Below, piece by piece: positions 29,143-46,209 of a stretch of 64,000 nucleotides of DNA; the stretch's first letter is position 1, and each line of letters begins with the position of its first letter. The translations under genes and the position numbers were made by a program. Source of the DNA: an archaeon (GTDB lineage Archaea > Thermoproteota > Nitrososphaeria > Conexivisphaerales > UBA164); contig JAJYTP010000003.1 of NCBI GenBank assembly GCA_021792955.1, positions 18,037 to 82,036 on the forward strand. The letters are read 5' to 3'. The notes beneath the pieces were generated by a model that saw only the letters and a list, made by a program, of their open reading frames with translations, had not been told where the DNA came from and made no database searches.

Positions 29143-29732
29143 GCAAGCACTTGTCAGGCAAAAATCAGGAACGCATGGAGCGGGCTGAACACCGGTCCAC
29201 TGCACAGTTGCGGTCGGAGCACGGTCATCACGATAAGGACGTATTTACCCATATTCACTGTTCCCTGATTACCGTAAGTACGTCCAGGTATGAGGGGCTG
29301 CAGAACGGAAAAAGGCTTAAGGATGAAAGCGGGGATATGCTGGAGAAGCTGCTTAAAGGAGCGGGGCACAAGGTGGCGTCTAGGACGCTGGTACCTGATT
29401 CTATAGCTCAAATAAGAAGCGCGGTACTATCGGCTGCGCGTCTGAGGGATGTAAAGCTGATCGTCCTAGTGGGTGGCACCGGTATGTCACGAACCGATGT
29501 CACCTATGATGCCATAAGGCCTCTGTTCCAACGTGAAATGTTCGGGTTCGGTGAAGCTTTCCGTTCAGCCAGCATCTTACAGGTGGGGCTGGACGGTATG
29601 TTCACTAGGGCGGCCCTCGGAATAACCGACGATGACAAGGTCTTGGTATCGCTGCCAGGGTCTATCAACGGCGTCCGGACCGGGTCGGAGCTTCTGGTTA
29701 AGATAATCCCGCATCTTATGTCATTTATATAG
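29139..29732 (+). CDS. moaB: Molybdenum cofactor biosynthesis protein MoaB/MogA family
   Basis: 197 aa. It has ITVSTSR, VLVGGTGMSRTDVT, GFGEAFR and LPGSINGV. An ATGA overlap links it to moaC. Confidence 0.75.
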   Translation: MSKHLSGKNQERMERAEHRSTAQLRSEHGHHDKDVFTHIHCSLITVSTSRYEGLQNGKRLKDESGDMLEKLLKGAGHKVASRTLVPDSIAQIRSAVLSAARLRDVKLIVLVGGTGMSRTDVTYDAIRPLFQREMFGFGEAFRSASILQVGLDGMFTRAALGITDDDKVLVSLPGSINGVRTGSELLVKIIPHLMSFI

Positions 29733-29812
29733 TAAACCCAAATAAGTTGGTGGCATCGAACCATTTGCGCAATTTGTTACATTTCTCCTCACAAAGGGCT
29801 TAGAAGCTAGGC

Positions 29813-30136
29813 ATGGAAGCAAAGTATTTTAATGGCGCTAAGGTTAGAATGATGATCTACTTGGCCAAAAGGACCTTTACTATAGAGATGAGCGATCAGA
29901 CTATACAGATCGATGGATATGACCATAGGAAGGTGCTTATCAAATATCTGATGAAAAGAAGGAGGAGCCTCCTGTCAACTAGGGATCCTAAGAAGGTAGA
30001 GCTCCTGTGGGAGAAATTGCCGAAGAAGGCCACCGTCAAAAGCGTCAGAGAATCCAAAACCTTTGACATAAATTGGAAGCTTAAGGGGGAAGGGGAATTG
30101 ACGGGCGCCAGATTTGTGTTTGACCTCGTACCTTAA
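29813..30136 (+). CDS. Hypothetical small basic protein
   Basis: 107 aa. I recognised no motif. It sits between moaB and the AT-rich nuo promoter region. Confidence 0.3.
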   Translation: MEAKYFNGAKVRMMIYLAKRTFTIEMSDQTIQIDGYDHRKVLIKYLMKRRRSLLSTRDPKKVELLWEKLPKKATVKSVRESKTFDINWKLKGEGELTGARFVFDLVP

Positions 30137-30295
30137 TCAGCACAAATTATATAATATATTCTGATCTAAGATTTTTTTATTAAAATATTTTGCAAATACA
30201 AGCTATAATATATTAATCCCTGAGATTTATCCATTCAGTGAGTTAATATAAATGATAAATAAAGTTAAATATGAACGCTAGATTCATATGATGAT

Positions 30296-30670
30296 ATGCT
30301 GCAGTGGGGCGGAGTCATAATCGACGTGGGGATCATCATGTTGATCGGCATCGCCGTTCCCATACTATCGTATCTTATAGGCAAGGCCCTCGCTTCCCCA
30401 GATTATCCATCAAAGACTCGCAGGTTCGAAAGCGGAAACGAACAGATCGGCAGGGCCAGGGGCATATTCCTTATGCAATATTACCCCTATGCGCTCCTTT
30501 TCATGACGGTGGAGCCATTTGTGGTATTCATATTTATACTGCTTCTAGTGCTCGGGGTGAGCACGACGATCGCCTTCGTTGTGGGCGTGGGGGTAATGGT
30601 TCCGTCTATGCTTTACGCTACGAAGAACGCAAAGGTGGCGGCGAGATGGGTGGTGGAGCAGACGGAGTAG
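30296..30670 (+). CDS. nuoA: NADH-quinone oxidoreductase subunit A
   Basis: 124 aa, 3 TM, with a FESGNE motif. It is the first gene after the AT-rich spacer 30140-30295. Confidence 0.75.
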   Translation: MLQWGGVIIDVGIIMLIGIAVPILSYLIGKALASPDYPSKTRRFESGNEQIGRARGIFLMQYYPYALLFMTVEPFVVFIFILLLVLGVSTTIAFVVGVGVMVPSMLYATKNAKVAARWVVEQTE

Positions 30671-31230
30671 CCTACTTTGGAAATTTGGAGACGGTCTCCA
30701 AGAAGGCGGTCTCCTTTCTGAAGAAGCAAGGATATGTAAAATCAATGATAAATTGGGGAGACAAGTTTTCCCTCTGGCCCGTGCATCTTATGACCTCCTG
30801 TTGTGGTACCGAGTTTGCAGCTGCTTCCGGGCCTCGTTTTGATCTTGAGAGGCTGGGCTTTCTTCCATTTGGGGGCCCACGTCAGACTAACCTCATAGTG
30901 ATCGAAGGCACAACCACGCTCAAGATGGCCCGAAGCGTAAGGATAGTCTGGGAGCAGATGCCGGCGCCAAAATGGGTCATAGCTATGGGGGCCTGCGCTA
31001 TGGATGGCGGTATATTCTATGATAGTTATAATACCGTTCCGGCCAAGGATATAGTTCCCATCGATATTTTTTTAGCCGGTTGTCCGCCTAGGCCCGAAGC
31101 GCTAGCCAGGGCTGTTGTTATGCTCCAGGAAAGCATAGTTAAGAATCGTCCTCCAGCGGCCGATATCCAGGTGACAGCAGCGCCCGCAACACCAGGTCCC
31201 AAGGATGTGGTCGAGGCGGTGTCCAAGTGA
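30646..31230 (+). CDS. nuoB: NADH-quinone oxidoreductase subunit B
   Basis: It has SCCGTEF, GACAMDGG and GCPPRPEAL (N2 cluster ligands). I set the start at ATG 30646. The track start 30304 would overlap nuoA out of frame with an Arg/His-rich nonsense N-terminus. Confidence 0.85.
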   Translation: MGGGADGVAYFGNLETVSKKAVSFLKKQGYVKSMINWGDKFSLWPVHLMTSCCGTEFAAASGPRFDLERLGFLPFGGPRQTNLIVIEGTTTLKMARSVRIVWEQMPAPKWVIAMGACAMDGGIFYDSYNTVPAKDIVPIDIFLAGCPPRPEALARAVVMLQESIVKNRPPAADIQVTAAPATPGPKDVVEAVSK

Positions 31231-31688
31231 CGGCCGCAAGCCGGGTCATCACGGGGATCACCTTTACCACCGATGAAGCCAAGGGAATATTCGAAGTTGA
31301 AGCGTCTGATGGCGCCCATCTGCTGGACCTTGCGACCCGGCTTAAGGCCGCTGGGTTTGACCACTGCCTTTCGGTGACCGCCGAGGACCTTGGTGATAGG
31401 CTGGCCGTGCTATGGCACATATCCAGTTACACTAACAGGGAGCTTTCCGGCATGAACGCCCAAATTAGGCTGGTCGTATCCAAATCAGATAATGTCGAAG
31501 TTCCAACGCTAACCGGCATCTGGGAGAGCGCCAATTTCCTGGAGAGAGAAACTTATGAAATGTTTGGAGTAGTGTTTAAGGGCCATCCCGATATGAGGCG
31601 TCTGTTACTTCCTGATGACTTCACTGGCAAGTGGCCTATGAGGAAGGATTTTCCATTGAAAAAAACTCCGTGGAGGGTGCAAAAATGA
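31227..31688 (+). CDS. nuoC: NADH-quinone oxidoreductase subunit C
   Basis: 153 aa. It has ERETYEMFGVVFKGHPDMRRLLLPDDF. The GTG start sits in a GTGA overlap with the nuoB stop. Confidence 0.8.
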   Translation: MTAASRVITGITFTTDEAKGIFEVEASDGAHLLDLATRLKAAGFDHCLSVTAEDLGDRLAVLWHISSYTNRELSGMNAQIRLVVSKSDNVEVPTLTGIWESANFLERETYEMFGVVFKGHPDMRRLLLPDDFTGKWPMRKDFPLKKTPWRVQK

Positions 31689-32911
31689 GCGCGCCCCAGG
31701 ACCGGACAGCTACGGCCAACCTGACTTACGATGAGCTGGCAGGACTGAAGGCTGACCGGGAACTGGTGCTGCTGATAGGCCCAGCTCACCCAGGCTCCGG
31801 GCATATGAAGATTAAGGTATGGATGGATGGCGATATAATCCAGAGGGTTGACCCCGACATCGGTTTCGTGCATCGTACCACGGAAAAGCTGAGCGAGAAC
31901 CGCCTATATATCAAGGCCATTCCCATTGTGGAACGGGTTATGCTGCCCGACACCATCAATGCCAATCTGGCGTATGTCATAGCCCTGGAAAGGCTGTTGG
32001 GAATAGAGCCGACCCCCCGTGCACAGTATCTCAGGACGCTGACGTCCGAAATCAACAGGATAACGAGCCATCTTTACGGAATAGGGCTGTACGGAATATT
32101 CCTCGGTTCATCGACGGTGTATATGTGGGCCTTTGCAGACAGGGAGCCCCTCATAGACTTGATCGAAGAGATCAGCGGCGCAAGGATAACCTATTCATAC
32201 ATAATTCCCGGCGGGGTCCGATGGGATCTGCCAGCAGGTTTCAAAGAAAGGGCGGAAACGGTGCTGCAGTACATGGAGGCCAGGCTGAAGGACTATGGAA
32301 AGATCTGGGTCAGGAATCCGGTTGTGATGGATAGGACCGAGGGGGTTGGCGTCGTAAGCAAATCAGACGCCATCCGCCTTGGGATAACCGGGCCAAACCT
32401 GAGGGCGTCTGGGGTTGATTACGATACAAGAAGGGCCAAACCATATGCTGCATACCCTAACCTCGACTTCGAAGTCCCTACATTCAGTGAGGGGGACTGC
32501 TATGCCAGGTTGCTTCAGAGGGTCGAGGAGATAGAGCAGAGCATCAGGATCATAAGGCAGGTGCTAAAGGATATCCCTGATGGCAGGATAATCAGCGACG
32601 ATATCTACTCAAAGATGAACCCGCTCCAGAAGAGGATGTATGAAATGAAACACCGGGTGATGTTTCCCGCGTATATGGCCAGCATGAGGCCTGCGGCCGG
32701 AAGGTCAACGGCGAGCGTGGAAGCCGGGCGGGGGGAGATCTTTTTCTACCTGGTAAGTAACGGGGATAAGGTGCCGTTCAGGTTCAGATGGGTGACCCCT
32801 TCGTTTCTCAACCTCCCGTTCTTCACACATGTGATGGTAGGGCAGCACCTTGCCGACCTGCCTGCGATATACGGCAGCTCCGACTACTTCCCTCCGGAGG
32901 CTGACAGGTAA
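31685..32911 (+). CDS. nuoD: NADH-quinone oxidoreductase subunit D
   Basis: It has GPAHPGSGHM, RITSHL, and a C-terminus ending ...FPPEADR. The ATG at 31685 forms an ATGA overlap with the nuoC stop (the track start GTG 31631 is the alternative). Confidence 0.85.
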   Translation: MSAPQDRTATANLTYDELAGLKADRELVLLIGPAHPGSGHMKIKVWMDGDIIQRVDPDIGFVHRTTEKLSENRLYIKAIPIVERVMLPDTINANLAYVIALERLLGIEPTPRAQYLRTLTSEINRITSHLYGIGLYGIFLGSSTVYMWAFADREPLIDLIEEISGARITYSYIIPGGVRWDLPAGFKERAETVLQYMEARLKDYGKIWVRNPVVMDRTEGVGVVSKSDAIRLGITGPNLRASGVDYDTRRAKPYAAYPNLDFEVPTFSEGDCYARLLQRVEEIEQSIRIIRQVLKDIPDGRIISDDIYSKMNPLQKRMYEMKHRVMFPAYMASMRPAAGRSTASVEAGRGEIFFYLVSNGDKVPFRFRWVTPSFLNLPFFTHVMVGQHLADLPAIYGSSDYFPPEADR

Positions 32912-33976
32912 ATGATTCAAATCCTCTCCCTGTTGATGTCGGTTTCATTGGTGTCGTTCATCGAATACATCCTGCCGCCGATCCTTTACATAATAGTCTT
33001 CCCTGGGCTTATAGTTGTCCTGCTGATGCTCTTCTTTATGATATGGCTGGAAAGGAAGGTTGCAGCAAAGACACAGCTGAGGTTTGGGCCCCTCTACGTT
33101 TCGAAGAGGTTTGGAGGCGTAATTCAAACCGTGGCGGACCTGATACGCTTTAGCTTCCAGGAATTCATAATTCCAGCCGGCGCCGACGTCTTCGCCTATA
33201 TTCAGGCTCCGGGCTTGCTCATGGCGTTCGGGCTTCTTCCTCTGATATTTATTCCGGTTGGCCCCTATTATGCGAACATCTTTCCGGCCAACTATTCACT
33301 GCTGATCGTAGTTCCTCTCATAATAATAACGCCAATTTACGTCATACTCCTGGGATGGGCCAGCGATAACAAGTTTTCATTTGTAGGTTCGATGAGGGAG
33401 GCATTCCTTGTCATATCCTATGAGATCCCATTAATCCTCTCCATCCTTTCTATGATACTTCTTTATGGAAGCGTCAACGCGATCAACGGAGTGAGCTTTC
33501 AGATAGGAAGGGGCATACCGGGAATCGTGCTAAACCCCATAGCCGCCTTCCTCTTCTTGGTGGTGATGATAAGGACCACCGGCCGATTTCCATTTGAAAT
33601 AAGCGAAGCTGAAAGCGAGGTTGTCATGGGCCCGTATACAGAGTACAGTGCGCTGTTCTTTGGGATAGGGATGAGCCTGCCGTACATCGAGCTCTATTCG
33701 TTCAGCCTGCTCTTTTCCGTGCTGTTCCTGGGAGGGTGGTGGCCTATTGTACCTTCTGCGGCAGCGGCCTCAGGGGTGGTGGGCGGGCTCCTGCTGCCGG
33801 GCCTGGTGGTCTTTATAAAGGCGCTGATCGTGATGGCTTTCCTTGTGTTTTTAAGGGCCGTATACCCAAGGTACAGGATAGATCAGGCGATAACGGTTGG
33901 CTGGGATCAGGCGGTGTACCTTGGATTTGCGGCTGTGGCACTTTCAATGGCGCTAGTTTGGAGTGGTCTGGTTTGA
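32912..33976 (+). CDS. nuoH: NADH-quinone oxidoreductase subunit H
   Basis: 354 aa, polytopic. It has WLERKVAAKTQLRFGP...GGVIQTVADLIRF. Confidence 0.85.
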   Translation: MIQILSLLMSVSLVSFIEYILPPILYIIVFPGLIVVLLMLFFMIWLERKVAAKTQLRFGPLYVSKRFGGVIQTVADLIRFSFQEFIIPAGADVFAYIQAPGLLMAFGLLPLIFIPVGPYYANIFPANYSLLIVVPLIIITPIYVILLGWASDNKFSFVGSMREAFLVISYEIPLILSILSMILLYGSVNAINGVSFQIGRGIPGIVLNPIAAFLFLVVMIRTTGRFPFEISEAESEVVMGPYTEYSALFFGIGMSLPYIELYSFSLLFSVLFLGGWWPIVPSAAAASGVVGGLLLPGLVVFIKALIVMAFLVFLRAVYPRYRIDQAITVGWDQAVYLGFAAVALSMALVWSGLV

Positions 33977-34527
33977 CTGGGCGAAAAAATAACCGTATAA
34001 AGGGACATGTCGACGCGTTAGCCACCGGCTTCAAATACCTGGCCGAGCCCAACAGGATGACGCTGAACTACCCGGACGAATCCATGAATCTCAAGGATAA
34101 CTACAGGGGGTTCTTCGCAGTTAAGGATAAAACGTGCATAGGGTGCAGCCTGTGTGAGATAGTCTGCCCACCGAAGGCCATCTCCATGCTTGACCTGACC
34201 GATGCCGGAGGAAAGAAGAAGAAGAGGCCGATGATCGACTGGGGTCTCTGCATATTCTGCTATTTCTGCGTAGACATATGTCCTACAGATGCCTTCCAGA
34301 CTTCGCAGGTTCATGATAAGGCCTTCTACTCGGAAACCGAATATCAAACGGTCCATGGCGAGCCGATGCAGTATCCTTATGACTACAGTAAGCGGCCTGA
34401 TTATAAGGAAATATATGAATCATTTCATGATGTAGCGCCGGACGATCCGTCGGCCGGCTCGAAAAAGGTGGTTCCAAAGTTCGACAAAAAGAGGGGGATA
34501 AAATATGAGCATCCTGGTCAGCCTTAG
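33973..34527 (+). CDS. nuoI: NADH-quinone oxidoreductase subunit I (2x[4Fe-4S])
   Basis: It has CIGCSLCEIVCP and CIFCYFCVDICP. I set the start at TTG 33973 (TTGA overlap with the nuoH stop), because the conserved ...TLNYPDE region needs an upstream start and the rest of track ORF 33736- overlaps nuoH. Confidence 0.8.
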   Translation: MTGRKNNRIKGHVDALATGFKYLAEPNRMTLNYPDESMNLKDNYRGFFAVKDKTCIGCSLCEIVCPPKAISMLDLTDAGGKKKKRPMIDWGLCIFCYFCVDICPTDAFQTSQVHDKAFYSETEYQTVHGEPMQYPYDYSKRPDYKEIYESFHDVAPDDPSAGSKKVVPKFDKKRGIKYEHPGQP

Positions 34528-34984
34528 CGTCATTGCCTCTTCAGTGGCCGCAGTAGCCTTCTCCTGGCTGACTGTAACCCACAGGTCTTTGATTTATTCG
34601 GCCCTGTTTCTTTCGCTGCTGGGCCTGGCCAATGCTGCCATCTTTTTCATCCTGGGCTTCATCCTGGTCGCCTTCATGCAGATAATAATCTATGTTGGCG
34701 CCGCCGTCCTGTTCATAATAATGTCGGTATCAATGATGAAGGAGCCTCCAAAGATGTACATGGGTGTCAAGTATGCGGCGTTTGGCGCTGCAGCCGCGCT
34801 GGCCATAGTTTTCTTTCTGGTGCTGTTCGCCGGCTCGCGCCTTTCACTGGCTCCCATCTCCGTGAGCATTACATCCATGGTCAACTACTTGGTCAGCTAT
34901 GGTTATGCCGGCCTGATCGTCCTATTTATCATGTTGAGCATAGCGCTTCTGGCTTCAATAGCCATAGTTAGGAGGGATGACTGA
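34505..34984 (+). CDS. nuoJ: NADH-quinone oxidoreductase subunit J
   Basis: 159 aa, 5 TM. Position and size are as expected in the operon. Confidence 0.7.
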   Translation: MSILVSLSVIASSVAAVAFSWLTVTHRSLIYSALFLSLLGLANAAIFFILGFILVAFMQIIIYVGAAVLFIIMSVSMMKEPPKMYMGVKYAAFGAAAALAIVFFLVLFAGSRLSLAPISVSITSMVNYLVSYGYAGLIVLFIMLSIALLASIAIVRRDD

Positions 34985-34989
34985 GCATC

Positions 34990-35307
34990 ATGAACCCTGT
35001 TTTCTATATCGTCCTTTTTACGTCTATATTCATGATCGGCATGGGTTTCGCAGGTTCTGTGGGAAACCGTAACCCGGTTAAGATGCTGCTATCCATAGAG
35101 GTTTCATTCAATGGGGTGCTGTTGCTGCTGCTGTATCTGGCTACGTCTTTGGATGCTGCGCTTCTGGGCGCCGACCTGTCCATACTGGCAATAGGCCTTT
35201 CAATAGGGGAAATAGCGATAATAATGAGCGTCATGATAGCGCTTTTCAGGGCAGGCATGATAAGGGAGCTAGATGAAAAGGAGTTCAGGGAGGAGGAGGC
35301 CGAATGA
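34990..35307 (+). CDS. nuoK: NADH-quinone oxidoreductase subunit K
   Basis: 105 aa, 3 TM, with conserved membrane Glu residues (SIEVSFN, GEIAII). Confidence 0.7.
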   Translation: MNPVFYIVLFTSIFMIGMGFAGSVGNRNPVKMLLSIEVSFNGVLLLLLYLATSLDAALLGADLSILAIGLSIGEIAIIMSVMIALFRAGMIRELDEKEFREEEAE

Positions 35308-36788
35308 CAGTTACAGCATTGCCCCTTGGCCTCAGCGTCCTGCTGGTCCCCTTCGTGGTATCCGTCCTGCTGCTGGTGATAGGGGGAAGGCTCAGGCCGC
35401 GGCTTCTTGCGTACATATCTGCTGCTTCGCTGGGGGTGCCCTTAGTATTCACGTCCGCCGTCATGGCGCTTTACCGATCCTATAGCGCTACCCTGCTCGC
35501 CGTAGGAGGGCTCGGGTCATTTATGGTGGTCATAAACGGGCTGAACTGGCCGGTCCTCTTGGGTATAATGGCCGTGACCATGGCCATTGCTATATATTCA
35601 GTCCCCTATATGAAGAGGAGATTCGAAGAGCTCGGGAAGGAACACTGGGGCACGTATTTCTTCCTCTATACGTTTTTCTCCGCTTCTATGGTTGGGATCG
35701 TGGAGTCAAACAATTTTATAATGTTCTATCTGTTTCTTGAGCTGAGCCTGATAAGCTCTTTCCTGCTCATAGCCTTCTATGGATATGGGGACAGGGGCAG
35801 GGTTTCCTTCATATACCTAATATGGACCCATCTGGGTGCCTTCCTTTTCCTCCTTGGCGGTTTCATATACGGAATGGTCCTGGGAACCTTCAACTTCTAT
35901 CCCGTTCCCCCCAACCTGAGTTCCATATTCCCCTATGTATACGTGGTCATAGCGCTTATACTTCTTGGGCTGTTTATCAAGATGGCAATCTTCGGGGTGC
36001 ACGTATGGCTCCCCTATGCTCACGCTGAAGCGCCGACCCCGATATCAGCGCTGCTGTCGCCAGCGCTCATCGGGATCGGTGGATACGCGATCATCAGGAT
36101 CCCTTATATTTTGTTCTTTTCGTATATGATCAAGCTTCAGTGGGCGCTCATAGTGCTGGCGCTGGTTACCATAATATACAGCGGGCTTCTGACTTTCCAT
36201 CAGAAGGATCTAAAGCGGCTTCTGGCATATTCCAGCATAGCACAGATGGGATATATGCTCCTAGGAATTGCATCGTTCAATCCTCTTGGCATAGTTGGAG
36301 CGATCCTGCAGTTCTATGCGCACGCCGTCGGCAAATCACTTCTCTTCTCCTCCTCCGGTGCCATTATAACCGAAAACAATGGGTTAAGGGATATAACGAA
36401 GATGGGCGGCATGGCCAAGGAAATGCCTATGACAACCTCCATGGCTATGTTGGGATTCATGGACATATCGGGCCTTCCCCCAACCGTGGGCTTCTTCAGC
36501 AAGCTGTTCATCCTGCTGGGCGTAGGCAGCTTCCTGGTTAATTCAGGCGTATACGGCTTCATCATGCTGATATTCCTCGTAGTGGGGTTCGGCATAACCC
36601 CTGCATATTCCTTCACGGCCATGAAAAGGGTCTTCTTCGGACCGTCGAGGAAGGGGTTCAAGGACGCGGGCCTGATGATGCTGGCTCCGCTTATCTTCAT
36701 AGCTATACTCGGCATAATCACCTTTATTTTTCCAGGATTGCTGATCACGCCGCTCTACCTTTATGTGCATTCTCTTATGGGGGGCTAA
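35304..36788 (+). CDS. nuoM: NADH-quinone oxidoreductase antiporter-like subunit, NuoM-type
   Basis: 494 aa, polytopic, Mrp-antiporter-like (LFLELSLISSFLLIAFYG, WLPYAHAEAPTP). An ATGA overlap links it to nuoK. Confidence 0.65.
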   Translation: MTVTALPLGLSVLLVPFVVSVLLLVIGGRLRPRLLAYISAASLGVPLVFTSAVMALYRSYSATLLAVGGLGSFMVVINGLNWPVLLGIMAVTMAIAIYSVPYMKRRFEELGKEHWGTYFFLYTFFSASMVGIVESNNFIMFYLFLELSLISSFLLIAFYGYGDRGRVSFIYLIWTHLGAFLFLLGGFIYGMVLGTFNFYPVPPNLSSIFPYVYVVIALILLGLFIKMAIFGVHVWLPYAHAEAPTPISALLSPALIGIGGYAIIRIPYILFFSYMIKLQWALIVLALVTIIYSGLLTFHQKDLKRLLAYSSIAQMGYMLLGIASFNPLGIVGAILQFYAHAVGKSLLFSSSGAIITENNGLRDITKMGGMAKEMPMTTSMAMLGFMDISGLPPTVGFFSKLFILLGVGSFLVNSGVYGFIMLIFLVVGFGITPAYSFTAMKRVFFGPSRKGFKDAGLMMLAPLIFIAILGIITFIFPGLLITPLYLYVHSLMGG

Positions 36789-36791
36789 AGC

Positions 36792-38789
36792 ATGAACTAT
36801 CTTCCTTACCTTATCTGGGCCTCGCCCTTTGTGGCTTCCGCCCTTGTGCTGGCGCTGCACAACAGGAAGGCTGCCGGGGGCATCTCCATTGGATCAATAG
36901 CCATAGCCACCCTTATATCAACCTATGAGCTGGCCGGCCTGAGCGGCCATCCGGTGGTTCTGAATATCAGCTGGTTCTCCCTGGGTGCCCTTCAGGTAAA
37001 CTTGGGCATGCTGATGGACGGGCTCTCCACCATCATGGCTCTGGTAGTGGCAGTGATATCCCTGCTGATATCGATATACAGCTACAGGTACATGGAAGAC
37101 GATGATGGAATAAACAGGTACTGGTTCTTCTTTACGTTCTTCGTAGGCTCCATGTTGCTCCTTGTCCTCAGTAATAACCTGCTGCTGCTGCTGATAGGCT
37201 GGGAGGGTACCACACTTTCTTCGTACGCGCTAATAGGGCACTGGTACACGGACGAGCCTGAAAGGTGGGTGGGTGATGCAGACAGGCACGCGCTAGGCGT
37301 GCCGGCCTGGTCAACACCAAGTGAGGCGGCCATAAGGGCCATTGTATTTACTTCCCTTGCTGACGTTGCGTTCATAACCGCCATAGGCATGCTTTATTCA
37401 GTATCGGGGACCTTCAGCATAAGCGTTCTTGCCTCTTCCATGCCGCATGTGCTGGCCGTGATGCAGAGCAGGGGGATACTGATCCCATTTCTGATAGCCT
37501 TCTCCCTCGGCGCATTTGCAAAATCGGCCCAGTTCCCATTCCATGAGTGGCTGGTAACTGCAATGACCGGGCCCAGCAGCATAAGCGCGCTCATACACGC
37601 TGCTACAATGGTTAACGCAGGCGTTTATCTGTTGCTCAGGTTCACCCCCATGTTCATAAGCGGTTCCCTGGCGGATGGCCTGTCGGCCCAGATCGAGCCT
37701 TTCTTCATCTACATGCTAATAATTGGAGCCCTTACGGCCTTCATGATGGCCAGCCAGGCAACTGTAGCAAAGGAGCTTAAGCTGATCCTTGCATATTCCA
37801 CCGCATCCCAGATCGGCTATATGTTCATGGCCATAGGGGCCTCCTTCTTCATCTTGCCAACGGTGGCACTGTTTGCCGCCTTCTCGCATATGATCAGCCA
37901 GGCTATATTTAAGGCGGCGCTCTTCCTTGTAGCTGGGGTTCTGATTCACCAGTTCGGATCCAGGTACATAGGGGATATGCGTGGGATCTGGAAATACATG
38001 AAGTACTCTTCAATAGCCTTCTTCCTGGCAGCGCTTTCCCTCTCGGGCATACCCCCATTTTCCGGCTTCTGGGATAAGGACCTTATCCTTGACCTGACAT
38101 CGTCAGCCGGACTCTGGGCCGCCTATGCGGTGGGAATGGTTGTGGCCTTCCTGACGGCCTTCTACATTTTCAGGGTGATAGTTATGACCTTCCAGGCTGG
38201 GCCAAGGGGGGAGGTGAAGGAGGCAAAAAGAAGCATGATGTGGCCATACCTGTTGCTTGGAGTGGCGGCACTGCTGTTCGGTATCCTTTGGCCCTATGCT
38301 CTGGGAAACATCTCTGGTCGGATCTACATCGCCATGACCTTCGATTCGATAATCAAGTGGGCCCCCGCTCAGGTGGTGTCTCAGATTCCGTTCAACTTGG
38401 TGATGTCAGTCCCATCGGTGGCAGTGAGCCTAACGGGGGTATTCCTTGCGTATTTCCTGTACAGGGGTGGAAAGCAGCCGTCTATTTCGAAGGGCAAGGC
38501 CGGAGGGATGTTCGGCGCGATATACGCCTTCTTCTATGACAGGTGGTTCATAAACGCCGTCTACTACAGGGTTTTTGTTAACGGCCTTTCGGAGCTGTCA
38601 ACCTTACTGGGGGTTTTCGTCGAGGCTAAGTTCTTTGATGGCATATATCATAATTATATCCCGAACGCGTTAGCCAGGGTGAGTGGAAGGTTCAGGAGGT
38701 TGCAGTCGGGCGATTTCGACCGTTTTATAGGGCTGATGTTCCTTGGCCTGCTGGCGTTAATCATAATATTTCTTATATTTTTGAGGTGA
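36792..38789 (+). CDS. nuoL: NADH-quinone oxidoreductase subunit L
   Basis: 665 aa, the longest antiporter-like subunit, with a C-terminal extension (lateral-helix region). It has GWEGTTLSSYALIGHWY and HEWLVTAMTGPSSISALIHAATMV. Confidence 0.75.
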   Translation: MNYLPYLIWASPFVASALVLALHNRKAAGGISIGSIAIATLISTYELAGLSGHPVVLNISWFSLGALQVNLGMLMDGLSTIMALVVAVISLLISIYSYRYMEDDDGINRYWFFFTFFVGSMLLLVLSNNLLLLLIGWEGTTLSSYALIGHWYTDEPERWVGDADRHALGVPAWSTPSEAAIRAIVFTSLADVAFITAIGMLYSVSGTFSISVLASSMPHVLAVMQSRGILIPFLIAFSLGAFAKSAQFPFHEWLVTAMTGPSSISALIHAATMVNAGVYLLLRFTPMFISGSLADGLSAQIEPFFIYMLIIGALTAFMMASQATVAKELKLILAYSTASQIGYMFMAIGASFFILPTVALFAAFSHMISQAIFKAALFLVAGVLIHQFGSRYIGDMRGIWKYMKYSSIAFFLAALSLSGIPPFSGFWDKDLILDLTSSAGLWAAYAVGMVVAFLTAFYIFRVIVMTFQAGPRGEVKEAKRSMMWPYLLLGVAALLFGILWPYALGNISGRIYIAMTFDSIIKWAPAQVVSQIPFNLVMSVPSVAVSLTGVFLAYFLYRGGKQPSISKGKAGGMFGAIYAFFYDRWFINAVYYRVFVNGLSELSTLLGVFVEAKFFDGIYHNYIPNALARVSGRFRRLQSGDFDRFIGLMFLGLLALIIIFLIFLR

Positions 38790-38790
38790 T

Positions 38791-40233
38791 ATGGAAATGC
38801 AAATAATTTTGTTCTACTCGATCGCCCCGCTCGTAATAGCAGGCCTGCTGATTCCACTGCTACGTAACAGGCAATACATCAAAATGAAGGGGATCATAGG
38901 GGCCGCGGCCTTGGTCATAACCCTCGGCATCTGGGCGTATGAGTATTTCTCAGGCGCCATTTCCAGCTGGTTGATCTCCAGTTCCCCCGTGAGCGAACTG
39001 GCGCGCTATTTCCTGCCTGACTGGCTATCCCTTTTGGTTGCCGTTGTAGCTGTTATGGGCGGGCTGTTAGCCCTGCCCCTGGCCAGAAGGCTCACCGGCA
39101 ACCAGACCGTATACATTTCCATCGTGCTGGTAGGCGTGGGCGGGACCATCGTGCTCGCATCAACACTGAACCCATTCCTCATAGTAGCATCGTGGGGACT
39201 GGTATCGGTGGCCAGCTACGCGCTGGCATCTATAGCTAAGGACAGGGATTCGCTTATCAACTCCGTGAAGTACGCCATTATGGGCGCAATCGCGTTTCAG
39301 TTCCTTGTAATAGCTGTCTTCCTGATCTATTCCTCCATTGGGAACCCTTCCGGAGCCCTCCTGTTAGACCTGGGGTTGCTCCTTTTGATGGCGGCCATAG
39401 GTTTCAAGATCGGAATCCCACCATTTCATATGTGGCTGCCGGACCTATACGGATATTCTGAACCTCTTTCGGTAGCCCCGCTGTCCGCCATAATGAAGCT
39501 GGGGCCGATTGCGCTGCTCCTGAGGCTTATGCTTGCCCAGGCGCCGTCCGGGCCTGAAATGGGAGCGCTCCTTGCGGTGTTGGTTGTCCTTTCGATCGTT
39601 GCCATGACGTTCGGCAACGTGACGGCGCTGGTACAGAAGAACATCCAGAGGATGATGGCTTATAGCAGCATGGCTCAGGTTGGATATATGCTGATGGCCA
39701 TCACGGTAGCCTTTGCGTCATTTTCCACCAGAGACTATACATCATTTTACTTTTCAGTGGGCGGACTGCTGATTTACCTGCTTGCCTATTCGGCGTCAAA
39801 AGCTGGGATATTTACGCTAATAAAGGGGGTAAGATCGGGCAGGGAGGTGACGTTAACGGATATCAGGGGACTTTCAGCTACCAATGGGGCGCAGTCAGCT
39901 TCATTTACCATTCTCCTTCTTAACCTGATAGGGCTTCCTCCACTTGTGGGCTTTTGGGGCAAGCTGCTGATCTTTGCATCGGCGGCGAACCCTGAATTGT
40001 CCTTCTTTTATATTGGCGGAGTTCCGTGGTTCGCCCTGATAGGCATAATAAACAGCGTCATATCGGTGTTCTATTATATGAAAATAGTCAGGTCCATGTA
40101 CGGTGATTCCAAGAAGGTGCCTGGCTACGATGCGCCAGTGCGCAGGTTTGAAGGCCTTAATTGGGTGATATTTGCATCCACCATAATAGTAGTTGTTGTA
40201 GGGATAATAGTACCAGTGTTGCTTGTAATTTGA
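38791..40233 (+). CDS. nuoN: NADH-quinone oxidoreductase antiporter-like subunit, NuoN-type
   Basis: 480 aa, polytopic. It has PPFHMWLPDLYGYSEPLSVAPLS and RMMAYSSMAQVGYML. It is the last gene of the cluster. Confidence 0.65.
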   Translation: MEMQIILFYSIAPLVIAGLLIPLLRNRQYIKMKGIIGAAALVITLGIWAYEYFSGAISSWLISSSPVSELARYFLPDWLSLLVAVVAVMGGLLALPLARRLTGNQTVYISIVLVGVGGTIVLASTLNPFLIVASWGLVSVASYALASIAKDRDSLINSVKYAIMGAIAFQFLVIAVFLIYSSIGNPSGALLLDLGLLLLMAAIGFKIGIPPFHMWLPDLYGYSEPLSVAPLSAIMKLGPIALLLRLMLAQAPSGPEMGALLAVLVVLSIVAMTFGNVTALVQKNIQRMMAYSSMAQVGYMLMAITVAFASFSTRDYTSFYFSVGGLLIYLLAYSASKAGIFTLIKGVRSGREVTLTDIRGLSATNGAQSASFTILLLNLIGLPPLVGFWGKLLIFASAANPELSFFYIGGVPWFALIGIINSVISVFYYMKIVRSMYGDSKKVPGYDAPVRRFEGLNWVIFASTIIVVVVGIIVPVLLVI

Positions 40234-40311
40234 TTAGACATTACTAGCAATATTCTAATAGGAATAATAAGATAGGTTTTTATACAATAATGGAATAAGG
40301 GGGGGCTGTAA

Positions 40312-41463
40312 ATGAGGGACAGCACGGAGGCCATTCATGGCCACGGATTTTTCGATGAATCAACTGGTACGTTTATACCACCCATTTTCATGTCAGCTAT
40401 GTTCGAACAGCCGGGGTGGACCAGGAGCACGGAACGCGGCGTTGACCTGAAGTATAGCAGGGAGGAGAACCCATCCGTCTCTTCTCTGGAAAGGATTATG
40501 ACAAAGCTGGAGGGGGCTGAGGACACGCTCGCCTTTTCCAGCGGAATGTCGGCCATCTCCAGCATATATATGTCCAAACTCAAAGCCGGCGCAGCCGCCG
40601 TTGTGATATCCGAAGCATATGCGACTTCTATCAAGCTACTGGAGGATTACAGGAAGTTCGGGGTAGACGTGAGGACGGTCTGGCCAAGCACAGAAGAAAT
40701 AATAGCATCAATCAAGAGGGATGTTGCATTTGTGCTCCTGGAGAGCATGACCAATCCATCCCTTAGGGTATTCAATATAGAAGAAATAGCAAAGGTGGCT
40801 CAAGAAGCTGGCACGGAGCTGATAGTTGATAACACCTTCCTGAGCCCGATCCTGTACAAGCCGCTAGCCCATGGTGCAAGGCTCGTCATAGAAAGCAGTA
40901 CCAAATACCTGAACGGCCATAATGACGCCATAGGCGGGATAGTCTCTGGCAAAAAGGATGAGATCAGAGGGCTCTGGGACTGGAGGCGAAAAATGGGCTC
41001 CATCATGTCACCGCTCACCGCTTACCTTACGAGCAGGGGGCTGAAGACGCTGGAGTTGAGGGTCAAGAGGGAATCCGATAGCGCGCTACGAATAGCCAGA
41101 TGGCTCTCAGAGAGCGGCATGGTAAAGGAGGTCATATATCCCGGGCTTGAAGATAACCCATATCATAAGCTGGCAAAGAAGCAGTTCACAGGATTTGGAG
41201 GGGTCCTTTGCTTTAGGGTCCGGGGTGGAGGAGCTGCTGCCAAGCTTTTGCTGAAGTCAATAAAGTTGATCAAGCCAGCGCCAAGCTTAGGTGGAACCGA
41301 GAGCCTGATAAGCTACCCAATCATTTCGGCCTCCTCCTCGCTGGATCAGGACAGCCGACAGAAGCTGGGGATAACCGACGACCTGCTCCGCCTTTCATTG
41401 GGGGTTGAAGATCCGGAGGACCTTATGGCGGACCTCAAGCAGGCACTGGGTAGGACCGGCTGA
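40312..41463 (+). CDS. PLP-dependent Cys/Met metabolism enzyme (cystathionine gamma-synthase/beta-lyase family)
   Basis: 383 aa. It has VVDNTFLSP and ESSTKYLNGHNDAIGG (the PLP-lysine motif SxTKYxxGH). Confidence 0.8.
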   Translation: MRDSTEAIHGHGFFDESTGTFIPPIFMSAMFEQPGWTRSTERGVDLKYSREENPSVSSLERIMTKLEGAEDTLAFSSGMSAISSIYMSKLKAGAAAVVISEAYATSIKLLEDYRKFGVDVRTVWPSTEEIIASIKRDVAFVLLESMTNPSLRVFNIEEIAKVAQEAGTELIVDNTFLSPILYKPLAHGARLVIESSTKYLNGHNDAIGGIVSGKKDEIRGLWDWRRKMGSIMSPLTAYLTSRGLKTLELRVKRESDSALRIARWLSESGMVKEVIYPGLEDNPYHKLAKKQFTGFGGVLCFRVRGGGAAAKLLLKSIKLIKPAPSLGGTESLISYPIISASSSLDQDSRQKLGITDDLLRLSLGVEDPEDLMADLKQALGRTG

Positions 41464-41689
41464 GCGCCACAGGACTTCCGAACTCCGCATTAAAACCATA
41501 TCATCCTATCTGACAGGACATCATCTTATGACCGAAGTGTACAAGCCTCTATGAGGCCATCCCCCTGTGGGTTCTCCAGCCAGCAGGGAACCTGTTTTGC
41601 GATTCAGCCATACGTTTATGGCGATGTTACATAACAGCGCCATCATTTCCCAAATAAGGGCAGTCGCTTTAATATTTCTTGTTCTATGG

Positions 41690-42127
41690 TCAGGAGCCCT
41701 TCAGGTAGCTGCCATCAATTGTCACCTGAAGCTGATAGCGTGTATCTAGCAGGCTTACAGTGGCCTCCTTCTTGTCCTTATCAAACCTTACTATCCGCGC
41801 TTTCATCCCCTTAAATGGGCCCGTTATGACCTCCACCACCTGCCCTTCGGCGAAGGACATTTCGACCTCCATGGGTTTGATTATGCTCTGAATATCGCTA
41901 ACCTTCATCAGCCCCGGAACGGTGGACCTGACGTTCTTGGTTCCGGTGGACAGGTCGGCGACTACATTTATCCTTTCGGCCTCTATAAGGAGGTATCCCT
42001 TCATTTTGCTTGCATATATTATGGAAAAGATAGGAAGTCCCTTTGTTTTTACCCTTTCAGCTATGCTTTCAGCTATGTTCTTCTCGTGCCCGCCGGCTAC
42101 CTTAAGAACGAATATCTTAGATGCCAT
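41690..42127 (-). CDS. spt5: Transcription elongation factor Spt5 (archaeal NusG)
   Basis: It has MASKIFVLKVAGGHEKNIAESIA (NGN domain) and the KOW GQVVEVITGPFKGMKARIVRFD. I set the start at ATG 42127, 1 nt after the upstream TGA (the track uses GTG 42139). Confidence 0.85.
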   Translation of the reverse strand: MASKIFVLKVAGGHEKNIAESIAERVKTKGLPIFSIIYASKMKGYLLIEAERINVVADLSTGTKNVRSTVPGLMKVSDIQSIIKPMEVEMSFAEGQVVEVITGPFKGMKARIVRFDKDKKEATVSLLDTRYQLQVTIDGSYLKGS

Positions 42128-42128
42128 A

Positions 42129-43091
42129 TCATGCTCCACCTAGTAGGGCTGCCACTAAATGGATAATAAACCCTATCCCGCCGGTCAGCGCTAATGCCAG
42201 GATGACCAGCTTAAGGTAGAGGTTATATTCCTTTTTTGTGGACTTCTTGCTATAAGAGAGGATAGTCATCATGCTCCTTCCCATTTCCTTAACGTTCTCT
42301 GTCCTCCGTATCATAAAGGCTGCGGTACCGCCTACGATCACGGCAACCAGCCCCAGACCGATGTATAATTCAATTGGGTTGCTGTATGCAAATGCGACGT
42401 CAACCGATGCGCCGGCCTGATCAACGGTTACTGAGCCCTTCGAAGGGGTTGGCACAAAATTCTTGTTTACCGATGATATAGTATAATTGTAGGCACCGTT
42501 AGCTTCATTTATGCTTATGGTGGCGTTGTCCGAATAGATGGTATTACCGTTGATGGTCACCGACCAGTTTCCACCGCTTACTAGCCCGGTCTCGCTAAAC
42601 ACTACGGCATATAATACAGGGGTAAATGTGATCGTCTCCTCTACTGGTGTGCCTGTTATGTTGATAGTACCAGATGATGGGGTCGCCGTATAACCTGGTA
42701 TGGAGAGGACGGTAAAGGCATAGGATCCGTTGGCCTCCTGTAATATCGTGCTATCGCTCGTTATGTTGATGATGTTCTCGTTGACGGTTATCTCCCAAGA
42801 AGTGTTAGGCGGTAGCCCAACTTCGGTAAAATTTACTGGGTAATTGGTTAATACGGTCGCAGCCGCAGCCAAATCGGCAGGCATCCCATTAGTCTGGGCA
42901 AGGGAAACGCCGCTAGGATTTCCGCTAAGGGTAAACGACCCCAGTAAGGGGTAAAGGCCTGCTTCAGCATGCTGCAGGCTGGGCCCGCCTGAGCTCTGTG
43001 CCATCATCTGTTGCCCGCCTGCAACGACGATGGCACTTAGCAGGATGAGCATTAGAAGCACTGTAAGCCTTTGGGTGTAATTCGGCTTCAT
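42129..43091 (-). CDS. secE: Secreted tandem-repeat glycoprotein-like domain fused in frame to a SecE/Sec61-gamma-like C-terminus
   Basis: 320 aa. It has an N-terminal anchor LTVLLMLILLSAIVVAGG and two roughly 76-aa repeats (YPVNFTEVGLPPNTSWEITVN... / YAVVFSETGLVSGGNWSVTIN...) rich in NxS/T. Next come the TM LYIGLGLVAVIVGGTAAFMI and SKKSTKKEYNLYLKLVILALALTGGIGFIIHLVAALLGGA, which matches the archaeal SecE pattern. The gene sits in the conserved position upstream of spt5. Confidence 0.6.
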   Translation of the reverse strand: MKPNYTQRLTVLLMLILLSAIVVAGGQQMMAQSSGGPSLQHAEAGLYPLLGSFTLSGNPSGVSLAQTNGMPADLAAAATVLTNYPVNFTEVGLPPNTSWEITVNENIINITSDSTILQEANGSYAFTVLSIPGYTATPSSGTINITGTPVEETITFTPVLYAVVFSETGLVSGGNWSVTINGNTIYSDNATISINEANGAYNYTISSVNKNFVPTPSKGSVTVDQAGASVDVAFAYSNPIELYIGLGLVAVIVGGTAAFMIRRTENVKEMGRSMMTILSYSKKSTKKEYNLYLKLVILALALTGGIGFIIHLVAALLGGA

Positions 43092-43276
43092 ACCACATCA
43101 CACATCCGATAAAGGTAGCGGTAACCCGTCGAGTAGCTGTTAACGTACAGGTTCCCTGTGCATACGGTAAATCTGCAGCCCAATATGGCACCGTTCATTT
43201 TATATCAGCTTATAAATATTCCGAGGAATAAATTTGCCCAATAGAATCTGGCCTTTTTCTCCCGTGCAATAGTGCT

Positions 43277-43966
43277 TCATCTCCCCTTTTCCTTTATCCG
43301 TAGTATACCATCGACTAACCCCTCTACTGCCTTTACCGGGTCAGTGCTCTTCATGACAGCCGATGCCATGGCCGCCCCATCGGCCCCCAACTCAATGGAC
43401 CTGTAGACGTCTTCGCCCGTGACTATACCGGCACCGGCTAGGAGGAACACCTTTCCACCTTGTCTGTTGGCATCCACGGCCCTGGTTATAACTTCGGGTT
43501 TTTCCCTGGATATTGCCCTTCCGGTGCCAATGAGTTCAGGCGGTTCGATCAGGAGCGCCGTTGGCTTGAGAAGCCCGACCGGAGCCACCAGTTCGTACCG
43601 GTCCACGCATACAACGCTTTCCAGCCCGGATTCCTTCATCATATTTATAGCATCCGAAAGTTCGGAGAGCTTCATACTTCTTTCGCTGTGGTTTAGGATT
43701 GATCCCTTGGCGCCGGCCTCCTTTATGAGCTCGGGGATTATGCTCCCCGTGGCAGCCCCGAGGGGCGACGCATCTACATGCTGAGCGAACACCGGTATCG
43801 ATATCTCGTCCGCCAGCCTGCTTATCATGGTCGCCGGCACGGAAATTATTATATCCACTGACCGCTCAAGGCTTATCCTCTCCAAGATGCGGGAGAACTC
43901 TATGGCTCCTTCTCCGTATGAATTTCTATACAGCTTAAAGTTTATCAAAAGTAATGGTGGCTTCAC
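43277..43966 (-). CDS. tpiA: Triosephosphate isomerase, archaeal type
   Basis: 229 aa. It has LLINFKLY, GSILNHSERSMKL, IEPPELIGTG and AGAGIVTGEDV. Confidence 0.85.
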   Translation of the reverse strand: MKPPLLLINFKLYRNSYGEGAIEFSRILERISLERSVDIIISVPATMISRLADEISIPVFAQHVDASPLGAATGSIIPELIKEAGAKGSILNHSERSMKLSELSDAINMMKESGLESVVCVDRYELVAPVGLLKPTALLIEPPELIGTGRAISREKPEVITRAVDANRQGGKVFLLAGAGIVTGEDVYRSIELGADGAAMASAVMKSTDPVKAVEGLVDGILRIKEKGR

Positions 43967-44740: not shown

Positions 44741-45232
44741 TTGACCATATGGTATAGCCTCTTTAGAAACGCCGCTTATTCTTACCTTGGAGGGTTTATA
44801 ATCTGGACGGCCCTATTTATATTACCCTTAAGTCCCTTCACATACCTTCTCCCGATACTGGTGCGCGGGGGGCCAGGGATTTGGTTAATTCTGGGCTATA
44901 TGCTTAACCTTACAGTAGGCGTGATCGGTTCAGGAATGCTGTCATCACTTATATACACCATAGAAGTACATGAAAAACGCGTTATAAATGGAAAGCTCAT
45001 GATTTCCGGATTTACGCTTCTGAACGTGGGCATAATCTCAAGTTGCGTGCTTCTAGCTACGGCCGGTGCGCTTGGGGGGTACGCCATCGATATAGGCGGC
45101 GCATCCGAGCTGGCGGCACAGGGGCTTCTTACGGCGTATGTTTATCCCATCACTATAACCGTCATCACGGCCATAGTGGGGGCAGTCTTAACTCTATCAA
45201 CTATGATCGGTGCAAAGGCGCCTGTAGCTTGA
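44741..45232 (+). CDS. 4-TM membrane protein, paralog B
   Basis: 163 aa with a TTG start (no in-frame ATG nearby). It has the same 4-TM layout and shared motif as 44145-44696. Confidence 0.5.
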   Translation: MTIWYSLFRNAAYSYLGGFIIWTALFILPLSPFTYLLPILVRGGPGIWLILGYMLNLTVGVIGSGMLSSLIYTIEVHEKRVINGKLMISGFTLLNVGIISSCVLLATAGALGGYAIDIGGASELAAQGLLTAYVYPITITVITAIVGAVLTLSTMIGAKAPVA

Positions 45233-46209
45233 TCGGACTGGGAGGGGCATGGCGGAGGAGAAAGGTTTGGCTAATCGCCCTTTTGATGATCCTAATCGTA
45301 TATGCGGCTACTTCGCGGATATCCATAGGGAATGCGAAGTCGCCGGAGCGTCTGGCTCCGTCATCAGGGGCAAATTATTATAGCGGCGGCGCTTCCTGGG
45401 GCGCTGGGCTCGTAGTGCCTGAAGGCTCACGGACAGCAAATGGTGGCAGGGTTGACTGGGCCGATGTGCAAAACGTTTCGGCCCTCTTCCGGCTTCCGGA
45501 CATCAATGAGACCGACGGCACGATTTATATGATAATGTCCCTGATGACTTCAAACGGTTCAATTATCCAAGCTGCAGCAGGCCTGTATCAAAATTCGAGC
45601 TACTGGGGCACTTACGCCATGTACGTAGCCAATCCAGCAAGGCAGGTATACGCGCCGATAATTTCAACCGAAGCCCCCTACATGGTGCCTGGCGACATCA
45701 TATTCATGTCCATATATTTCCTCCCTGATAGCGGTTGGAACCTTCTTCTCCTGGATCTTACAAATGGACTATCGGCCAGTGCATCGTTTGGACCTGGGCT
45801 GCCAGCATCACTAAAGGTAGGGGACCAGTTCGTGTTCGCGCTGGAATCATATACTTCTACCCCTTCCGTATTTGAAAATATGGGCAATGTTACGCTTTAT
45901 GCGCTTCTGATCAATGGGGAGGCGGTTGTGAACGGCAGCTACCTCTACAGCGGGTGGAATAACCTCCGCTATCCGCTGTTCATAGTTGGAGGAGCCAGTG
46001 TGCCGAACTTCATGGCCATGAACCTGACTGCGTCCAGTGGGGTAGTCTGGAGCTACGGGAGCCAGTGGGGTTCCCCATCTTCAGGCCCACCCGCAGGGCT
46101 AGATCTAATTTTCTTGGCACTGGCCGCTGCCGCCGCAGTCAACGTGGTGATATTGGTTCTGCTCATATGGAGCAGGGGTAAGGCTAAAGAGAGGCTTAGC
46201 GTGCGATAA
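45229..46209 (+). CDS. Membrane-anchored extracellular protein, possibly eqolisin (G1) glutamic-peptidase-like beta-sandwich
   Basis: The start is TTG 45229, in a TTGA overlap with the upstream stop. It has an N-terminal anchor WRRRKVWLIALLMILIVYAA and a C-terminal TM LIFLALAAAAAVNVVILVLLIW. The blocks SIIQAAAG, YWGTYAMYVANP, PGDIIFMSIYF, LDLTNGLSAS, QFVFALESY and MGNVTLYAL parallel the G1 family blocks as I recall them. Confidence 0.35.
   Translation: MIGLGGAWRRRKVWLIALLMILIVYAATSRISIGNAKSPERLAPSSGANYYSGGASWGAGLVVPEGSRTANGGRVDWADVQNVSALFRLPDINETDGTIYMIMSLMTSNGSIIQAAAGLYQNSSYWGTYAMYVANPARQVYAPIISTEAPYMVPGDIIFMSIYFLPDSGWNLLLLDLTNGLSASASFGPGLPASLKVGDQFVFALESYTSTPSVFENMGNVTLYALLINGEAVVNGSYLYSGWNNLRYPLFIVGGASVPNFMAMNLTASSGVVWSYGSQWGSPSSGPPAGLDLIFLALAAAAAVNVVILVLLIWSRGKAKERLSVR

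Follow-up and report, generated by a model that had tools for sequence, protein, structure and literature searches.

SecE binds SecY and is required for the stability of the translocon. To our knowledge, SecE and Sec61-gamma are among the most uniform proteins of archaea and eukaryotes, forming a tail-anchored clamp of about 60 residues without an extracytoplasmic part. The subject of this analysis is a stretch of 64,000 nt from an archaeal contig (JAJYTP010000003.1, positions 18,037 to 82,036; hereafter, the window), in which an open reading frame (ORF) of 320 codons on the reverse strand, at positions 42129 to 43091, begins like a surface glycoprotein and ends, in the same frame, as a SecE directly upstream of spt5. 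The evidence favours, with a probability that we put at roughly 0.55, a real fusion, specific to a lineage of acid-mine Nitrososphaerota, in which the 3′ end of a surface-glycoprotein gene runs on in frame into the orthologous secE, and in which the fused protein would be a working SecE, with or without an additional nested product.

The archaeal SecE/Sec61-gamma family (Sss1; TIGR00327, PF00584; 1RH5/1RHZ chain B, 3MP7_B) consists of stand-alone proteins, 54-119 aa long in all cases examined, that have one transmembrane (TM) helix and a cytoplasmic N-terminus. Residues 265-320 of the ORF align across the whole family model, and they share with it the amphipathic helix, the KK-x-T/S-xxEY hinge, the TM helix with its G..IGF/YIIH pattern, and the position of the gene directly upstream of spt5; in contrast to the family, the SecE module here stands at the C-terminus of a 320-aa ORF, together with a second TM helix and a 200-residue part predicted to be extracellular. 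The three-TM SecE of E. coli is similar to the fusion in having extra, non-conserved TM helices ahead of the essential amphipathic helix and last TM helix. These accessory helices, TM1-2, lie beside the C-terminal half of SecY and touch the periplasmic side of its gate (PMC6776908). The two extensions are, however, non-homologous: E. coli SecE has two extra TM helices, a cytoplasmic N-terminus and no folded extracytoplasmic domain, whereas the fusion has one extra TM helix, an N-terminal part predicted to lie outside, and a folded, glycosylatable tandem domain. In particular, a TM hairpin homologous to E. coli TM1-2 is absent; the extra helix is the single TM of a surface-protein family, with an anchor like that of the homologue P0006 and others, and its likeness to the E. 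coli helices is one of analogy.

A functional analogy can be drawn to TRAP and to the NOMO subunit of the BOS complex, in which TM anchors keep Ig-like beta-sandwiches on the trans side of the Sec channel. In TRAP, the Ig-like domains form a lumenal cradle that contacts Sec61 and for which a chaperone-like role has been proposed (PMC10279528). TRAP and NOMO differ from the fusion in being separate subunits that are unfused to Sec61-gamma; there is no detectable sequence homology, and the match in fold is generic (Ig-like/prealbumin-like). Finally, a group of unnamed archaeal surface repeat proteins shares with the ORF its repeat unit (FxETGLPxGTxWxV...NGxYxY) and the order of signal peptide, repeats, C-terminal TM anchor and basic tail, but these proteins have 3-7 repeats, end 11-80 residues past the anchor and lack a SecE. 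We found no paper describing an archaeal SecE fusion, and the present one exists in databases solely as conflicting automatic annotations.

The SecE module and the surface-protein part

A sequence-only reading of this DNA had proposed that a SecE-like segment forms the in-frame C-terminus of a 320-aa secreted repeat protein, and the uninterrupted frame and a match to TIGR00327 bear this out. In the SecE profile search that it suggested, the 61-aa fragment that starts from the ATG at 42314 passes TIGR00327 with 38.4 bits (cutoff 36.2), covering model positions 3-58 of 61, and the score inside the full ORF is 33.5 bits, slightly under the same cutoff; Pfam SecE (PF00584) remains at 17.3 bits, under its gathering score of 22.7, and a precomputed PF00584 match is also absent from many of the listed stand-alone relatives. 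Further, a custom hidden Markov model (HMM) built from the 19 nearest stand-alone SecEs scores the module at 76 bits (E = 7e-23); run against the six-frame translation of the 64-kb window, it matches the module and finds no second SecE there. In searches of the PDB, phmmer with the fragment alone recovers M. jannaschii SecE (1RH5_B, 3DKN_B) at E = 1e-4, and a profile search recovers SecE at E = 1.5e-10 as well as P. furiosus SecE, yeast Sss1 and mammalian Sec61-gamma.

The module also has the two-helix architecture of SecE, with an interfacial amphipathic helix, a hinge and a long C-terminal TM helix. The amphipathic helix spans residues ~265-283, the hinge reads SKKSTKKEY, and the TM helix spans residues ~286-319. 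An AlphaFold2 (AF2) model from a 78-row alignment places helices at 265-283 and 286-319 with a break at 284-285, its confidence score (predicted local distance difference test, pLDDT) rising to ~92 in the TM helix, and the hydrophobic moment is maximal at residues 264-284. The gene as a whole departs from the small, stand-alone, single-TM protein (about 55-80 aa) that characterizes the family in archaea and eukaryotes, having 320 open codons and selection throughout.

The sequence thus holds a complete member of the surface-protein family to which a complete SecE is appended. Hydropathy identifies three hydrophobic segments, at residues ~5-31, 239-262 and 290-320, and the first two reproduce the layout of the surface-repeat family: a signal-like segment at the N-terminus, and a C-terminal TM anchor followed by the basic residues MIRR. 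The earlier reading had called the first of these an N-terminal anchor; the hydrophobic segment is present, with an AF2 helix at 5-22 and the counterpart MRSNYAPRLMVLLTVILL... in the related locus L001, but it resembles a cleavable signal peptide equally well. The two tandem beta-rich repeats, rich in NxS/T sequons, that it had described are recovered: both match a profile made from 55 homologue repeats (independent E-value, i-E, ~2.5e-27 each; length 76-78 aa), and AF2 models both as beta-sandwiches with a pLDDT above 90. Foldseek matches these sandwiches to CnaB/pilin-type and other Ig-like/prealbumin-like folds, including the B. anthracis TIE protein (6fwv, E = 3.5e-8), the PepT1 ectodomain and the NOMO subunit of the BOS complex (9c7u_B), while Pfam, run on the repeat and its family, gives no consistent family covering the repeat. 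The ectodomain contains eight sequons, compared to a mean of 4.2 in shuffles (P = 0.03), and all eight are kept in the 79%-identical orthologue.

The closest non-fused homologues (P0003-P0014, 30-42% identity) are multi-repeat surface proteins, none of which contains a SecE. P0004, P0005, P0006 and P0012 end in a similar anchor and basic tail, for example ...YIMIRRDNRS in P0006. The nearest relatives of residues 83-259 belong to uncultured archaea, and the two with an organism name are from Thermoplasmata and Thermoplasmatota metagenome-assembled genomes (MAGs). Horizontal transfer from archaea living in the same place may be the origin of the surface-protein part, and would account for the assignment of this DNA to Thermoplasmata in the sequence-only reading. 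The repeat profile finds no further copy of the repeat in the 64-kb window. At 45043-46209 (+), 2 kb away, lies the gene for a further predicted surface protein, which is rich in sequons, ends in a TM anchor and basic tail (...LVLLIWSRGKAKERLSVR) and is unrelated to the repeat family.

Conservation of the frame and of the secE position

None of the 17 related loci (L001-L009 and L104-L111), which derive from independent NCBI, JGI and Logan assemblies, interrupts the frame; 16 of them cover the whole ORF, with 7 distinct DNA sequences, and L009 is cut at a contig end. The identical protein (P0001) is present in several NCBI and ENA assemblies. Variants of it occur in eight further PGAP-annotated MAGs (JAFLX series) and in two GTDB species representatives, differing at 0-16 aa where the locus is full-length. 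Three JGI metagenomes and two SRA runs yield a second lineage (P0002; loci L001-L005), with 79% protein identity, and 78.5% DNA identity over 7.4 kb. Between the window and L001, the synonymous divergence (dS) is ~1.4 and the overall ratio of non-synonymous to synonymous divergence (dN/dS) is 0.09. The ratio remains between 0.03 and 0.10 across the ectodomain, the anchor and the SecE module (0.044 in the latter), and of the differences in the anchor region 16 are synonymous and 2 non-synonymous; the linker between the N-terminal segment and the repeats has the highest value in the ORF and is its sole relaxed part. Two small in-frame indels occur elsewhere in the ORF of the L001 lineage. Because purifying selection acts in this frame, the whole frame is translated and constrained, and a ribosome that starts at 43091 must reach SecE; the resulting polypeptide would be ~33 kDa before glycosylation, and its final 56 residues would be a complete SecE.

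The same comparison decides whether a sequencing or assembly error, by deleting a stop or shifting the frame, has merged two separate genes. This idea rests solely on the oddity of a 320-aa SecE, nothing else having been found for it. A stop or frame change between the two parts was looked for in the related loci and occurs in none of the 17, which cover several samples and assemblers and include the lineage at dS ~1.4 with its two small in-frame indels; an artefact is thereby ruled out for practical purposes. The fusion is conserved and under purifying selection over its whole length, and is therefore neither a sequencing error nor a recent pseudogene.

The host had been taken for a member of the Thermoplasmata, and related Thermoplasmata had been proposed for comparison. 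An Spt5 query corrects this: its matches are Nitrososphaerota MAGs, 99% identical, and Conexivisphaerales MAGs, 54-55% identical, making Conexivisphaerales and other Nitrososphaerota the proper comparison group. The host lineage is plausibly the acid-mine Conexivisphaerales family described in bioRxiv 10.1101/2025.10.01.679748. The canonical gene order in Conexivisphaerales is eIF6, prefoldin, FtsY, (OTCase), secE, spt5, L11, L1 and L10, where secE is a stand-alone gene for ~68-79 aa. A AACGCTTAAAAT box, strongly conserved, precedes its ATG by ~30 nt; the spacing of this box suggests that the transcript is leaderless or near-leaderless.

The module occupies the normal secE slot, as the sequence-only reading had recognized, and both the TGA stop and the spt5 ATG at 42127 that it had pointed out are present in the sequence; the product of the downstream gene is Spt5, with the Pfam domains Spt5-NGN and KOW. 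The adjacency of secE and spt5 is common to ~100 other loci from genomes and metagenomes, and in these the frame upstream of SecE closes within a few codons (median below 10). A few have a longer upstream frame without a detectable domain, the longest being 118 codons (L011) and overlapping an antisense OTCase gene. No SecE fused to surface domains occurs among these ~100 comparable loci or among several hundred SecE relatives whose lengths were examined; for example, the best 120 of 3198 matches in a SecE profile search are 55-91 aa long. The Spt5 matches listed in a metagenome scan (38-55% identity) include no lineage that would link the fused to the unfused state, and the order of the fusion events therefore remains inferred. 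The coordinates of the features are collected in Table 1.

Table 1. Positions of the fusion ORF, its parts and associated sequence features within the window.
Feature	Position	Strand	Evidence or remark
Fusion ORF	42129..43091	-	320 codons + TGA stop at 42131-42129; ORF listing
Residues 1-33 MKPNYTQRLTVLLMLILLSAIVVAGGQQMMAQS, basic and hydrophobic N-terminal segment	42993..43091	-	Signal peptide or N-terminal anchor
Residues 34-82, low-complexity, poorly conserved linker	42846..42992	-	AF2 pLDDT <50; dN/dS 0.39
Residues 83-158, beta-sandwich repeat 1 PVNFTEVGLPPNTSWEITVN...	42618..42845	-	Repeat profile i-E 2.4e-27; pLDDT >90; dN/dS 0.03
Residues 159-237, beta-sandwich repeat 2 YAVVFSETGLVSGGNWSVTIN...	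42381..42617	-	Repeat profile i-E 2.5e-27; pLDDT >90; dN/dS 0.07
Residues 239-259, TM anchor PIELYIGLGLVAVIVGGTAAF, then stop-transfer residues MIRR	42315..42377	-	Hydropathy peak
Residues 265-320, SecE/Sec61-gamma module	42132..42299	-	TIGR00327, custom HMM, PDB matches, AF2 helices
Internal in-frame ATG M260, cytoplasmic end of anchor TM, possible start of nested 61-aa ORF	42312..42314	-	Kept in all variants
Internal in-frame ATG M270, start of nested 51-aa ORF	42282..42284	-	NCBI SecE annotation; kept in L001
TATA-like CTTTATGA, candidate internal promoter for leaderless nested secE	42311..42318	-	Position weight matrix (PWM) 5.1 bits; identical in L001
Upstream block with TATA TTTATAAG (43216-43209), likely fusion-gene promoter and leader start	43162..43226	-	Near-invariant in window, L008 and L001
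spt5, start 1 nt past the fusion-ORF stop	41690..42127	-	TIGR00405 99.7 bits; Pfam NGN + KOW

Internal start codons, promoters and further SecE genes

Several observations weigh against the fused protein as the working SecE. About one neutral stop-gain would be expected over the divergence of the two lineages and none is seen, which by estimate has a P of roughly 0.3, and the absence of stops does not by itself indicate selection. The confidence of AF2 is low for the anchor TM (helix 239-252) and for the linker 253-264. A second secE is possible, the search of the genome having covered only the 64-kb window, and a nested product could supply SecE, making the fused tail incidental.

If a canonical secE were present elsewhere, the fused copy would not be the housekeeping SecE but an accessory or specialised paralogue, or a decaying one; in keeping with this, the secE-spt5 neighbourhood is rearranged on both sides in the fusion lineage. 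However, the module sits in the orthologous slot, next to the sole spt5 observed, purifying selection on it is strong (omega 0.044), and an exhaustive phmmer search over 1.84 billion cluster representatives uncovered no closer stand-alone SecE. That search gave 21 matches at E up to 1e-3, where the sole long genuine match is the fusion's own sister cluster, the 524-aa P0016 is a low-complexity repeat, and the remainder are 54-119 aa long. Five of the nearest stand-alone SecEs were looked up (P0017, P0019, P0020, P0062 and P0151), and all five lie beside their own spt5 in other organisms. We consider a separate housekeeping secE quite improbable.

Nested genes are a possible, though doubtful, alternative. 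The working SecE would then be a stand-alone protein of 51 aa from M270, or of 46-61 aa from M260, M274 or M275, made from an internal promoter or ribosome-binding site, and the surface gene would have lost its stop, with the SecE tail as a tolerated by-product. The internal in-frame ATGs are M260 (42314), M270 (42284), M274 (42272) and M275 (42269). The first two had been noted in the sequence-only reading, together with a lack of promoter-like sequence in front of them; the start codons are there, but the ATG at 42284 is preceded at 34 nt by the TATA-like CTTTATGA, which has the same spacing as in the relatives' secE genes and in promoters of the window. Its score is within the top 0.63% of window positions, according to a PWM that was made from 13 hand-picked local TATA boxes and is partly circular; this hand-curated matrix replaced an expectation-maximization motif search on 55 upstream regions, which was too noisy. 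A comparable site, at -38..-29, precedes 11 of 472 internal in-frame ATGs (2.3%), compared to 13 of 55 annotated starts, in a test that is post hoc and whose P, when corrected for four candidate ATGs, is ~0.1. Moreover, all four methionines and the TATA-like site are conserved in L001, an AGGAG/GGAGG motif precedes M274/M275 in both lineages, with Shine-Dalgarno motifs being widely used in the genome, and NCBI PGAP annotates the nested 51-aa ORF as SecE (P0154, MDG7035565.1 and others). By sequence inspection, M260 has neither a TATA-like site nor a well-spaced Shine-Dalgarno motif in front of it.

Other characteristics of the junction count against nested genes. The TATA-like site is weak and has a G in its core, and the codons F-M-I leave its sequence hardly any freedom; the anchor of a distant family member ends in a similar IMIRR. 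The position of M270 is usually hydrophobic in SecE helices, so that its methionine needs no explanation as a start codon, and the 51-aa product would have the shortest N-terminal helix, with 11 residues before SKKS as compared to at least 14 in reliably called relatives. In alignments, stand-alone SecEs begin at residues 263-265, with the relatives' initiator methionine opposite Glu265, and the residues after it (NVKE, within the segment ENVKE at 265-269) still resemble a SecE N-terminus (GVKD, NVRE, NPKE). The position of the relatives' TATA box is here occupied by GC-rich anchor codons. Together, the change from methionine to Glu265 and this GC-rich stretch indicate that the ancestral start codon and promoter have both been lost. 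Finally, a test of synonymous-site conservation detects no significant run at the junction; the longest run of identical codons is at 304-314 (P = 0.086). We therefore retain the fused protein as the favoured source of SecE; a nested 51-aa SecE from M270 may be made additionally, and is less likely to be the main source.

Public annotation of the ORF is inconsistent. In at least 8 MAGs (L104-L111), PGAP calls only 42132-42284, leaving ~990 nt (42285-43276) between a TIM gene and that ORF unannotated, while JGI names the 320-aa ORF Sss1. As a result of these differences (a 51-aa SecE at NCBI versus Sss1 at JGI), the ectodomain is missing from some public proteomes, and the practical consequence is a surface domain that is invisible in some databases.

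Upstream of the ORF, a ~65-nt block (Table 1) is near-identical in the window, L008 and L001 despite the coding dS of ~1.4, and its flanks diverge with indels. The block holds the TATA sequence, GATATAAAA and an ATG at 43198-43196 and, judging from this pattern, probably comprises the fusion gene's promoter and the beginning of its leader. A small upstream ORF that starts from 43198 (MNGAILG...) was rejected as a coding leader peptide, its frame and length differing between the lineages. Folding of the 104-nt leader gives z = +0.3, which is no more structure than in shuffles, and there is no significant Rfam match to it. Within the codons of the SecE TM helix, GTTTATTA occurs at 42164-42171 (-), 44 nt upstream of the spt5 ATG, with GGTGGAG 8 nt before that ATG; the 11 codons around it (residues 304-314) do not differ between the window and L001 (shuffle P = 0.086), and this element may be a promoter of spt5 located within secE.

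Proposed topology, role and genomic surroundings

The topology put forward by the sequence-only reading is self-consistent, and the distribution of charges fits the positive-inside rule: the ectodomain has 2 K and 0 R (pI ~4), versus 8 K/R in the 31-residue loop 259-289. In the proposed arrangement, the ectodomain would lie outside, the anchor TM would cross the membrane from out to in, the basic cytoplasmic loop of ~30 residues would be the SecE amphipathic helix, and the SecE TM would return from in to out. Since there is one extra TM helix and not two, the N-terminal part has to be extracellular. The SecE module would presumably clamp SecY as usual, the extra N-terminal TM helix would sit at the periphery of the channel, like the accessory TM1-2 of E. 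coli SecE, and two glycosylated beta-sandwiches would thereby be attached at the translocon's outer face. In that place, by analogy only with the Ig-like cradle of TRAP, the ectodomain could serve emerging surface proteins, most of them glycosylated, as a holdase or scaffold. The analysis shows the ORF with its domains, its conservation and the selection on it, its orthologous place and its singularity within the loci and proteins surveyed; the assembly of the fused form with SecY and the role of the ectodomain are what we infer from these comparisons.

It is rather unlikely, in our estimate, that the fused 320-aa protein is the only SecE, such that every SecYE-beta translocon carries a glycosylated tandem Ig-like module outside. 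If it were the sole SecE, the module would act on substrates as a holdase, as a glycosylation or S-layer scaffold, or as an acid-side shield, and the protein would correspond, as a single prokaryotic chain, to the TRAP cradle of eukaryotes. More generally, a true fusion would imply that the archaeal channel can accommodate an extra TM helix at its periphery, that SecE can be inserted co-translationally within a type-I protein instead of being tail-anchored, and that trans-side accessory domains can be recruited to the channel by fusion; it would also provide a natural model for the origin of translocon-associated lumenal factors such as TRAP.

Rfam, run on 41400-43500, returns only an insignificant C/D-box match (SNORD15, 18 bits, E = 0.43) at 41474-41537 (-), in the convergent intergenic region between a metB-like gene and spt5. 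The L11, L1 and L10 genes are missing downstream of spt5, as had been noted from the sequence, and they follow spt5 in neither the window nor L001, unlike in Conexivisphaerales. A block of ~13 kb at 28665-41690, containing MoaC, MoCF, the nuo operon and the metB-like gene, is inverted with respect to positions 7483-12935 of L001; the breakpoint of this inversion lies directly past the spt5 stop, and in L001 spt5 is followed by MoaC-MoCF-nuo on the same strand.

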